DNA of 64,000 nt from a virus. The notes under the pieces were generated by a model that did not search any database, had not been told where the DNA came from, and was given only the letters and a program-made list of their open reading frames with translations. The stretch spans positions 124,324 through 188,323 of IMG/VR virus record IMGVR_UViG_3300046804_003518. One strand, written 5' to 3'. The first letter of the stretch is position 1. Each line of letters starts with the position of its first letter. A program made the translations under genes and the position numbers. This document shows positions 30,985 to 59,299 of the stretch, piece after piece.

Positions 30985-31049
30985 TTGGTACTGGCTTCTT
31001 GGTATTAGTATTTGGTGCAACTACATTTATAGGTTCATTAAAAATTAAT

Positions 31050-31335
31050 GGTAGTAAACTGACGACTAAAGGTGTTCTGGACGGGGTTTCAATACCCCCA
31101 TCTCCACCAAATTTAACGTGTGTGTCACACTTTACCAGAGTTGACGACTCTGGCACGGACTACGGGGATGACAGGTTTCGACAGGGCAAGTAATAAACCG
31201 ACGGCTACCAGTGAGGCGACTGACTTAATCAGCGCAAACAAAGTAAACGCAAACGATGATGTTTACAACATGGCTCTAGCTGCCTAAGGCACTAGATTAC
31301 CAGAGTTGACCGCTTGGTAACAGAAAGGTCGGAGG
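31050..31335 (+). ncRNA. ssrA: Circularly permuted (two-piece) tmRNA, tag peptide ANDDVYNMALAA
   Basis: Acceptor piece 31050-31109 ends ...GGGGTTTCAATACCCC-CATCTCCACCA; coding piece starts GGGGATG at 31164 (G3:U70 pair); tag ORF 31249-31287; inter-piece helices CAGGGCA/TGTTCTG and GCTACC/GGTAGT. Confidence 0.92.
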
Positions 31336-31360
31336 CGGCAGCTTTCGCTGCCGCCTTTTT
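31333..31360 (+). terminator. Rho-independent terminator ending the tmRNA
   Basis: AGGCGGCAGC-TTTC-GCTGCCGCCT followed by TTTT. Confidence 0.85.
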
Positions 31361-31389
31361 CTTCCAACTGCATAAATGGAGGTAACAAC

Positions 31390-54180: not shown

Positions 54181-55056
54181 ATGCCTAGAGGTGTTCCGAA
54201 GAACGGGTTCCGAATGACCAAACGTCGTCGGCAATCGCTTGGTAAGTCTGCAACCGTTGCTCTTACTCTTAATAAGAGTACTGAGTCAGTGGAACAGATC
54301 CAGGAGAAGCTGACTGAGCGTTTCAACGCTCTAGAGGTTCTTTCGGAAGCGACTGGTAAGGGTATCAACCGCTCTCTGATTGTATCAGGACCTGCTGGTC
54401 TTGGTAAGTCGTATACGGTTGAGCAGAAGATGCGACAGCTCGAGAATGCAGGTCACGTTGTGTCCTACATCAAGGGCTATGTTCGTCCGCTCGCGCTTTA
54501 TCGGTTGCTATACAACGCTCGGTTTGAGCATTGTGTACTTGTGTTCGACGACTCGGACTCTATCTTCGCAGACGACGTCTCGATGAACCTTCTGAAGAGT
54601 GCGTGCGACTCAACTGAGAAGCGCAAACTCCACTGGTTGTCGCGATCTGTTGAGAGCTTAGAGGATGAGGATGGTGAACCTGTTCCGGATAACTTTATCT
54701 TCGAAGGTTCTGTGATCTTTATTACGAACTACGACTTTGACGACCTCATTGCTCGTGGCTCGCGACTTGCTCCTCACTTTGAGGCGCTGGTTTCGAGGTC
54801 TCATTACCTCGACCTTGCAATGAAGACGAAGCTCGACTATGTCGTTCGTATCAAGCAGGTTGTTGGTCAGGGGATGCTTCGTGATAAGCAGATTTCAGAC
54901 TACGATGCTGGAATACTTGTAGACTTTGTAGAGAAGAACATGGATAATCTCCGTGAGCTGTCTCTCCGAATGGTCATCAAGTTGGCCACGCTGATGAAGA
55001 TGGACTATGTCAACTGGCAAAAGTTAGCAAAACAAACTTGTTTTCGTAGCCGTTGA
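54181..55056 (+). CDS. AAA+-type ATPase, conserved in T4-like phages
   Basis: Walker A SGPAGLGKS, Walker B LVFDDSD, FITN, SRSHYLDL; SD GAGGTG. Confidence 0.85.
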   Translation: MPRGVPKNGFRMTKRRRQSLGKSATVALTLNKSTESVEQIQEKLTERFNALEVLSEATGKGINRSLIVSGPAGLGKSYTVEQKMRQLENAGHVVSYIKGYVRPLALYRLLYNARFEHCVLVFDDSDSIFADDVSMNLLKSACDSTEKRKLHWLSRSVESLEDEDGEPVPDNFIFEGSVIFITNYDFDDLIARGSRLAPHFEALVSRSHYLDLAMKTKLDYVVRIKQVVGQGMLRDKQISDYDAGILVDFVEKNMDNLRELSLRMVIKLATLMKMDYVNWQKLAKQTCFRSR

Positions 55057-55081
55057 CATATATAGTAGTCTAGCTGATAAT
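55053..55081 (+). promoter_or_regulatory. Sigma70 promoter of the tRNA/ncRNA array
   Basis: TTGACA-17-GATAAT. Confidence 0.75.
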
Positions 55082-55837: not shown

Positions 55838-55841
55838 TTTT

Positions 55842-55973
55842 GATGTCGCGACATCCCTATAGTGTAAGAGTTTGTCTGTATGGGTAGCACTATATGAATT
55901 ATGAGAGCTAACAGAATGCATCCTTGCTGTGTGGGGGTAAGGTCTAAGAATGAACCTTAAATGGTAGCCCACA
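55842..55973 (+). ncRNA. Candidate structured RNA between tRNA-Asn and tRNA-Ala
   Basis: GATGTC/GACATC, TATAGTG/CACTATA, TCTGT/ACAGA, GTGTGGG/CCCACAC, TAAGGT/ACCTTA. Confidence 0.4.
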
Positions 55974-55981
55974 CCTTATTT

Positions 55982-56056
55982 GGGGGATTAGTGCTAATGG
56001 GAACACGCCGCGTTTGCATCGCGGAGTTGAGAGTTCGATTCTCTCATCCTCCACCA
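55982..56056 (+). tRNA. tRNA-Ala(TGC)
   Basis: G3:U70, loop TT-TGC-AT, ACCA. Confidence 0.93.
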
Positions 56057-56059
56057 AAC

Positions 56060-56168
56060 TTGTCATTCGTAAGCCATGGGTGATCGTAAAGCCCGAGTAA
56101 CTGCGCCAACAGAAAACTTCAATTCTAGATACATGAAGGTGAGACGCAGCAGATAGTACGAATGACAA
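56060..56168 (+). ncRNA. Candidate structured RNA closed by a perfect 12-bp helix
   Basis: TTGTCATTCGTA/TACGAATGACAA enclosing GGGT/GCCC, CTGCG/CGCAG, CTTCA/TGAAG. Confidence 0.55.
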
Positions 56169-56216
56169 TCTTATTTGCCCGACACCTCTGCCTCGTGTAC
56201 GTGTCGGCTGTCTTTT

Positions 56217-56265
56217 CTGTCTCTGATGAGTCCAAAGGGACGAAACGCTGTGAAGCGTCAGACAG
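56217..56265 (+). ncRNA. Hammerhead ribozyme (type I topology)
   Basis: Stem I CTGTCT/AGACAG; core CTGATGA; stem II GTCC-AAAG-GGAC; GAAA; stem III ACGCT-GTGA-AGCGT; GUC cleavage triplet at 56257-56259. Confidence 0.9.
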
Positions 56266-56275
56266 CAACTTACCT

Positions 56276-56443
56276 TATGGTGTAAAGTTTGCAATGAGCG
56301 ATAAAGAATAACAGGGGCATGCCATCTTATGCGAAGGGATGGAACAACATGTGTGACACTCGATCGCAGGTGCAGAGGTTAGAGTAATTCCAGCAAACCC
56401 GTAGTCGCATTACTGAGAGGCTGGCATCCAAAGCAAAACCATA
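56276..56443 (+). ncRNA. Candidate structured RNA downstream of the hammerhead
   Basis: Closing helices TATGGT/ACCATA and TTTGC/GCAAA; internal CCATC/GATGG, CCAGC/GCTGG. Confidence 0.45.
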
Positions 56444-56449
56444 CTTATT

Positions 56450-56523
56450 TGGGGGTTCGTCTAAAGGTAGGACGCAAGACTTTGACTCTTGCTATCGTGG
56501 TTCGAATCCATGACCCCCAACCA
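56450..56523 (+). tRNA. tRNA-Gln(TTG)
   Basis: U1-A72, loop CT-TTG-AC, CCA. Confidence 0.92.
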
Positions 56524-59173: not shown

Positions 59174-59181
59174 TATAAATA
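59174..59181 (+). promoter_or_regulatory. T4-type late promoter
   Basis: TATAAATA upstream of a structured spacer and the initiator-like tRNA. Confidence 0.55.
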
Positions 59182-59299
59182 TGTCTTACCCGCCCTACCT
59201 TTCGGTGTAAGGTTTGTCGCATAGCGATGGGTATTTTTGTAAGTAGGAATCTAGGGCATAGTGCGCACTGTGTGACGATAGATGAACCGAGACCTTTAT

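Follow-up and report, generated by a model that had tools for sequence, protein, structure and literature searches.

A hammerhead ribozyme in a phage tRNA array that probably forms the 5' end of a conserved pseudoknotted RNA

We identify a complete type I hammerhead motif within the tRNA array of a T4-like phage genome. The motif is conserved among relatives, two of its three stems covary, and it occupies an obligate position at the first base of a structured RNA that follows it. Judged from sequence comparison, positions 56217–56265 are a genuine, selected hammerhead in the predicted transcript of the array. Our main reading, to which we assign a probability of about 0.7, is that hammerhead cleavage most likely generates the 5' end of a ~184-nt RNA that is conserved and pseudoknotted (56260–56443), with RNase P bounding its 3' side. 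All coordinates refer to the window, i.e. the whole stretch of DNA that was analysed, which is the final 64 kb of a 188,323-bp viral record rated complete by CheckV.

The tRNA array and its hammerhead

The 23 tRNA genes of the window and its two-piece tmRNA all lie on the plus strand. The tmRNA is phage-encoded and circularly permuted (30998–31378), and it carries the tag ANDDVYNMALAA. Genes nearby encode several 2OG-Fe(II) oxygenases, a halogenase-like flavoprotein and an HNH endonuclease. The hammerhead is located inside the 393-nt spacer between tRNA-Ala and tRNA-Gln, where an earlier note on this DNA had also placed it. It lies on the strand of the 23 tRNAs and 3' of a promoter-like site. 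The main features of this part of the array are as follows:

55053–55081, plus strand: sigma-70-like promoter upstream of the array, a consensus match only (11 of 12 matches)
55982–56056, plus strand: tRNA-Ala(UGC), upstream of the hammerhead
56060–56168: element A, a structured segment of ~109 nt closed by a 12-bp helix, directly 3' of tRNA-Ala(UGC)
56170–56216, plus strand: window-specific insert of 47 nt between element A and the hammerhead
56217–56265, plus strand: type I hammerhead, recognized by its complete core, its alignment to Rfam family RF00163 and its fold
56450–56523, plus strand: tRNA-Gln(UUG), downstream of the hammerhead

Element A also follows tRNA-Ala in two other contigs (L089 and L090), where its outer helix differs yet stays complementary, and it is found in L076 and L204 as well. 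A permissive-threshold scan of the spacer gives no Rfam match for this element. Because L089 and L090 contain element A without an adjacent ribozyme, it is independent of the hammerhead. The motif CTTATTT occurs four times within 1 kb of the array (55424, 55975, 56170 and 56444), each time directly 5' of the next RNA unit, and may be a shared 5' leader or processing signal; across the window it shows no overall enrichment (14 copies in total, both strands counted).

The hammerhead consists of the following parts, all on the plus strand:

56217–56222 paired with 56260–56265: stem I, CUGUCU with AGACAG
56223–56229: core segment CUGAUGA
56230–56241: stem II, including its 4-nt loop
56242–56244: GAA
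56245–56258: stem III, with a GUGA loop
56259: C17, with predicted cleavage between C56259 and A56260

The type I core is intact, with C3, U4, G5, A6, N7, G8 and A9, then G12, A13 and A14, the A15.1–U16.1 pair (56245/56258) and H17 all present. When the 49-mer is folded in isolation, its minimum-energy structure is exactly the three-way junction (-15.7 kcal/mol), in which loops cap stems II and III while stem I is open, the type I topology. The complete hammerhead that the earlier note had described is thus borne out, both in its elements and in its fold. The Rfam search proposed in the same note was run as well: RF00163 (Hammerhead_1) aligns end to end at 33.9 bits, with an E-value of 7.1e-7 when the 393-nt spacer is compared with all 4227 Rfam families and of 7.9e-8 when the whole 188-kb genome is searched with this one model. 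The match is not due to chance. A default Rfam scan is nevertheless silent on it because the score falls 0.1 bit below the gathering score of 34.

Folding in context is less informative. Nearest-neighbour folding gives the active fold an equilibrium share of only ~1e-3 to 2e-4 in the window, and its share in the relatives is likewise low (5e-5 to 4e-2), including relatives that have no upstream copy of the stem I strand. Because the relatives score similarly low, these shares say little either way; they mainly reflect poor handling of hammerhead junctions by nearest-neighbour models. Natural fast-cleaving hammerheads usually have a tertiary contact between stem I and loop II that supports fast cleavage at physiological Mg2+. 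By-eye inspection of both flanks revealed no conserved complement of loop II that could make such a contact here.

Relatives of the hammerhead and the RNA at its cut site

Pattern scans of uncultivated viral contigs and metagenomes recover the same hammerhead, with the same stem I, in ~60 viral and metagenomic contigs, mostly of T4-like phages and usually in or beside tRNA arrays. The carriers are regarded as T4-like phages because one of them (L094) encodes RegA, Hsp20 and a family B DNA polymerase, and the sample names suggest that the contigs come from aquatic sources. BLAST searches of cultured phage genomes with the array, the spacer and a typical relative give no match, and a search of E. 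coli genomes with the typical relative gives none either. A pattern limited to the core, stem II and the first part of stem III finds 82 loci, nearly all of which are type I hammerheads, while a pattern of the core plus the stem I 3' strand finds 29 loci and a junction pattern 44. Only one of 10 relatives tested reaches the RF00163 gathering score, so standard annotation mostly misses this subfamily.

Covariation was assessed in the short versions of the hammerhead (18 distinct relatives), in which the three stems are paired in 98.5% of cells. A CG/UA exchange occurs at one pair of stem II and exchanges occur at three pairs of stem III; changes on both sides of a pair in these two stems amount to 21 cells, a value that 0 of 500 shuffles reach. 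Stem I is invariant among the relatives and hence provides no covariation support. The search patterns constrained the 3' strand of stem I only, and 11 of 12 copies found with a ribozyme-blind pattern carry this same strand.

The neighbours of the hammerhead vary among phages. Its distance from the preceding tRNA is 6 nt in L023 (tRNA-Asp), 2 nt in L059 (tRNA-Trp), 45 nt in L092 (tRNA-Cys) and 69–73 nt in many T4-like contigs (tRNA-Thr). In four phages (L059, L188, L207 and L023), the tRNA 3' end precedes the ribozyme by only 2–6 nt, so there is no room for an upstream partner RNA. No conserved sequence 5' of the ribozyme was found in this family, in which the ribozyme is terminal and not inserted internally into a loop of some larger RNA. 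Stem III carries inserts in some members of the subfamily (e.g. ~50 nt at L089:11665–11763, and ~90 nt at L133:9786–9924 and L138:11193–11330). The L138 hammerhead has A rather than C at the cleavage-site position.

The first base of the downstream RNA is the cut-site base. We aligned 37 distinct sequences, each beginning at the cut site (alignment A3), and built covariance model R1 from this alignment. The RNA is ~184 nt long in the window and 112–185 nt long elsewhere, and its general layout is an invariant 7-nt start, a hairpin, an optional variable insert, a 3' domain and a conserved end. Its parts in the window, all on the plus strand, are as follows:

56260–56443: conserved structured RNA starting at A56260 (alignment A3, model R1)
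56267–56271 paired with 56285–56289: first hairpin stem, variable in sequence between phages with pairing always kept, enclosing a conserved loop
56276–56281: UAUGGU, a loop segment of the first hairpin that forms the 5' strand of the long-range helix
About 56295–56365: variable insert
56371–56435: 3' domain, supported by covariation in its closing helix P3, with inner helices read from sequence and alignment
56371–56373 paired with 56433–56435, plus 56377–56378 paired with 56428–56429: closing helix P3
56390–56394 paired with 56420–56424: inner helix of the 3' domain
56401–56405 paired with 56409–56413: terminal hairpin of the 3' domain
56438–56443: 3' strand of the long-range helix (ACCAUA), ending 6 nt before tRNA-Gln

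The 6-bp long-range helix, which makes the RNA a pseudoknot, was predicted by RNAalifold. Across the 37 sequences it is paired in 97.7% of cells and has three covarying pairs (UA/GC 23:10, GC/AU 18:16 and GC/AU 30:7). Helix P3 is paired in 92.7% of cells, and all five of its pairs covary; controls with the register slid are only 29–44% paired. R1 scores the window copy at 76.1 bits (E 3e-20). At permissive thresholds, no Rfam family matches the downstream RNA in the window spacer or in five relatives. RF02939, the model of the COG2908 motif, gives only 11.2 bits (E 8.6) against a cut-off of 58.7, and the resemblance is limited to the first hairpin of the RNA and the 5' half of the motif. A 7-mer complementary to the 5' tail of the RNA is not enriched in the window, so there is no sign of a seed–target relation.

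The coupling between ribozyme and RNA is best seen from the RNA side. A pattern drawn from the 3' domain of the RNA only finds 53 loci, of which 12 are true members and the rest are chance-like and mostly in coding sequence. In all 12 true members, the hammerhead ends exactly at the first base of the RNA; some of these hammerheads have stem III inserts of 50–90 nt and one has a different stem I. No strong copy of the RNA lacking a hammerhead is found in 100 further loci, nor among the 36 matches that a loop-motif pattern gives in species-representative bacterial and archaeal genomes. None of these 36 matches has a hammerhead, and most of them are chance-like in coding sequence. Matches to the 3' end motif in L086–L088 are coding sequence and were rejected as homologues of the RNA.

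The ribozyme, on the other hand, is not tied exclusively to this RNA, because some T4-like contigs have the hammerhead immediately before the leader of a small winged-helix gene instead. The downstream RNA is missing in L004, L010, L021, L024, L049, L093, L098, L101, L105 and L106. In these contigs, the stem I 3' strand is used again in a short hairpin that comes after the hammerhead, and a small gene begins ~45 nt further on. The corresponding gene in L094 encodes an 81-aa winged-helix protein and lies between regA and the DNA polymerase gene.

Proposed maturation route and rival explanations

Hammerhead self-cleavage produces a 2',3'-cyclic phosphate and a 5'-OH. We propose that an active hammerhead is co-transcribed with the tRNA array and would cut itself after C56259. 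With the type I topology, the ribozyme remains on the 5' fragment and seven of its nucleotides remain on the downstream product. The upstream fragment would therefore keep the whole ribozyme, with stem I open, and would be expected to end in a 2',3'-cyclic phosphate. The downstream fragment would begin with a 5'-OH at A56260, the first nucleotide of the RNA. The ribozyme may thus serve as a 5'-end maturation device for a stable non-tRNA RNA, which RNase P cannot trim, and RNase P would set the 3' side at the 5' end of tRNA-Gln, six bases past the long-range helix.

Beyond this, we suggest tentatively, and at somewhat less than even odds, that a new class of knotted phage RNA, distantly related to COG2908 and found in the tRNA arrays of apparently aquatic T4-like phages, depends on the hammerhead as its obligatory device for 5' maturation, and that the RNA acts in trans in a role linked to tRNA biology (e.g. 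as a decoy or cofactor). On this reading, the invariance of stem I would be accounted for if the cleaved RNA uses the stem I 3' strand again as a 5' element of its own; stem I would be doubly constrained and cleavage would become irreversible.

Three other explanations bear on the same observations. The earlier note had proposed that a second copy of the stem I strand at 56207–56213 could compete for the stem I 3' strand and act as an on/off switch. Such a device would capture that strand and keep the ribozyme inactive until a signal releases it. The copy does exist, and in contexts of 60–126 nt the alternative fold is computed to be 5–6 kcal/mol more stable than the active one (e.g. -22.1 versus -16.2 kcal/mol for 56207–56266). 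However, the copy belongs to the 47-nt insert, which comprises the CTTATTT leader, an 8-bp hairpin (56177–56208), a U-rich tail and the copy itself, and which is absent from all compared relatives, including the closest ones (L204, L076, L188, L207 and L059). A distance of 4–6 nt separates the upstream element from the hammerhead in L204 and L076, and in L059, L188, L207 and L023 a tRNA end adjoins the hammerhead instead. Moreover, the window shows no enrichment of the 7-mer of the copy, and there is no evident sensor element. Transcription reaches the stem I 3' strand only after the local stems II and III have formed, which leaves a kinetic route to the active fold open. We therefore consider a switch improbable as the explanation of the element; it is possible in the source phage of the window, where it has no comparative support.

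The cut could also serve general processing of the polycistronic transcript, or provide ends for ligation or circularization of the RtcB type, rather than the maturation of one RNA. RtcB ligases join ends of the kind that hammerheads leave (5'-OH and 2',3'-cyclic phosphate). For prophages, it has been suggested that hammerheads flanking genes divide long transcripts into units (PMC3088659). Against this, the spacer has one ribozyme only, so the released RNA would have no 3' end with a cyclic phosphate, and searches of the complete 188-kb genome revealed neither an RtcB gene nor an Rnl2-type ligase gene (the search for Rnl1 was silent even on its control and says nothing). The type I topology would leave a 43-nt ribozyme trailer on the upstream RNA and so gives no help to tRNA 3' maturation. 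The way in which the ribozyme adjoins the downstream RNA, tightly and without variation, indicates a specific partner. We regard this explanation as unlikely. Of the earlier suggestion that the cut defines the ends of neighbouring RNAs, the part that holds concerns the 5' end of one RNA, which is downstream and conserved; the ligatable or circularizable products that were suggested alongside are not supported, given the single ribozyme and the ligase search.

Lastly, the hammerhead and the RNA might form a selfish or drifting cassette that moves among phage tRNA arrays and has no role here, or might be an inactive relic. The module does lie behind different tRNAs from phage to phage (Asp, Trp, Cys, Thr, and Ala plus element A), T4-like contigs that otherwise resemble each other may have or lack it, and a gene for an HNH endonuclease lies 3.4 kb from it in the window. 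But no mobility gene is adjacent to the module, core nucleotides and helices are all intact in the window copy, and the covariation (37 distinct sequences) shows purifying selection on both ribozyme and RNA. We give this possibility little weight, and 5'-end maturation of the downstream RNA remains our preferred reading.

Known systems and a probable paralogue without hammerhead

The tRNA cluster of phage T4 yields two stable RNAs, 'species 1 and 2' (rnaC and rnaD), which are non-tRNA RNAs of ~120–140 nt, co-transcribed with the cluster and of unknown function. They are not known to be processed by a ribozyme. The hammerhead-led RNA is similar to these species in that both are non-tRNA RNAs of T4-type tRNA clusters.

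Hammerheads of phages and prophages were described by Perreault et al. 2011 (PMC3088659), who proposed that they cut long transcripts; in a halovirus, the cut site of the hammerhead coincides with a mapped 5' end (PMC3088659). The window hammerhead agrees with these type I hammerheads (RF00163, PMC3088659) in its catalytic core, in its three helices with stem I open, and in its intergenic location in a phage. Its subfamily differs from them in having an invariant 6-bp stem I and no recognized contact between stem I and loop II, in scoring mostly below the Rfam threshold, and in its fusion, exact to the base, with a single conserved non-coding RNA within tRNA arrays. A literature search found no published description of hammerheads in phage tRNA arrays or of the downstream RNA. 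Phage hammerheads have been known since 2011 with their purpose mostly open, and here an identifiable, conserved client RNA starts at the cut site. The client has a covarying pseudoknotted fold and many conserved unpaired bases, a profile that usually marks a specific biochemical role.

Theta ribozymes, which are minimal HDV-like ribozymes of gut phages of Bacteroidota and Bacillota, trim the 3' ends of phage tRNAs (PMC10879173). Both they and the window hammerhead are small, self-cleaving and co-transcribed with phage tRNAs, and both would make RNA ends without host nucleases. The theta ribozyme, however, has a different fold and cuts at its own 5' edge to free the 3' end of the upstream tRNA, whereas the hammerhead is predicted to cut at its own 3' edge and free the 5' end of a downstream non-tRNA RNA. 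The reported sources also differ, in that the hammerhead contigs are T4-like and, from their sample names, apparently aquatic. No HDV-like family is found in the spacer at E-values up to 10, and the topology there is that of a hammerhead. The client RNA suggests a concrete, testable job for a phage hammerhead, i.e. host-independent 5'-end formation of a stable RNA in a tRNA operon, which would mirror tRNA 3' trimming by theta ribozymes.

Compared with the COG2908 motif (RF02939; Weinberg et al. 2017, PMC5737381), the hammerhead-led RNA has in common the conserved loop of the first hairpin, found in the 5' half of the motif. The second hairpin and the closing stem of the motif are absent from it, and its long 3' domain and long-range helix lie outside the Rfam model. 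The idea that the Drum motif is preceded by hammerheads is not borne out by the text of Weinberg 2017 (PMC5737381). The window also contains a COG2908 RNA of its own, 3 kb 3' of the hammerhead in the same array:

59174–59291, plus strand: probable distant paralogue with no hammerhead, recognized by RF02939, by R1 and by an upstream box

A full COG2908 RNA lies at 59188–59232 between tRNA-Thr and tRNA-Met (RF02939, 70.7 bits), and R1 weakly extends it to 59291 (12.3 bits, E 0.015 in 10 kb). Just 5' of tRNA-Met lie six bases complementary to its hairpin loop. This RNA probably extends beyond the Rfam motif and is probably distantly paralogous to the hammerhead-led RNA. It is preceded by a TATAAATA box at 59174–59181, at a spacing from which a T4-type late promoter with this box would start transcription at about 59187/8, the first base of the RNA. 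The window has nine TATAAATA boxes, eight of which lie on the gene strand. A late promoter at this site would be a different route to a defined 5' end, and we count this among the arguments for 5'-end formation by the hammerhead.

Two minor observations concern possible further occurrences of the loop motif. Two Clostridia-type contigs (L178:2602–2660 and L180:6551–6610) have in common an intergenic-looking segment that starts with the same 7-mer and loop motif and has no hammerhead, and which may be an unrelated conserved RNA. In the window, between tRNA-Asn and tRNA-Ala, positions 55841–55894 resemble a very weak mini-version of the loop and its distal complement (R1 7.5 bits, E 0.3).
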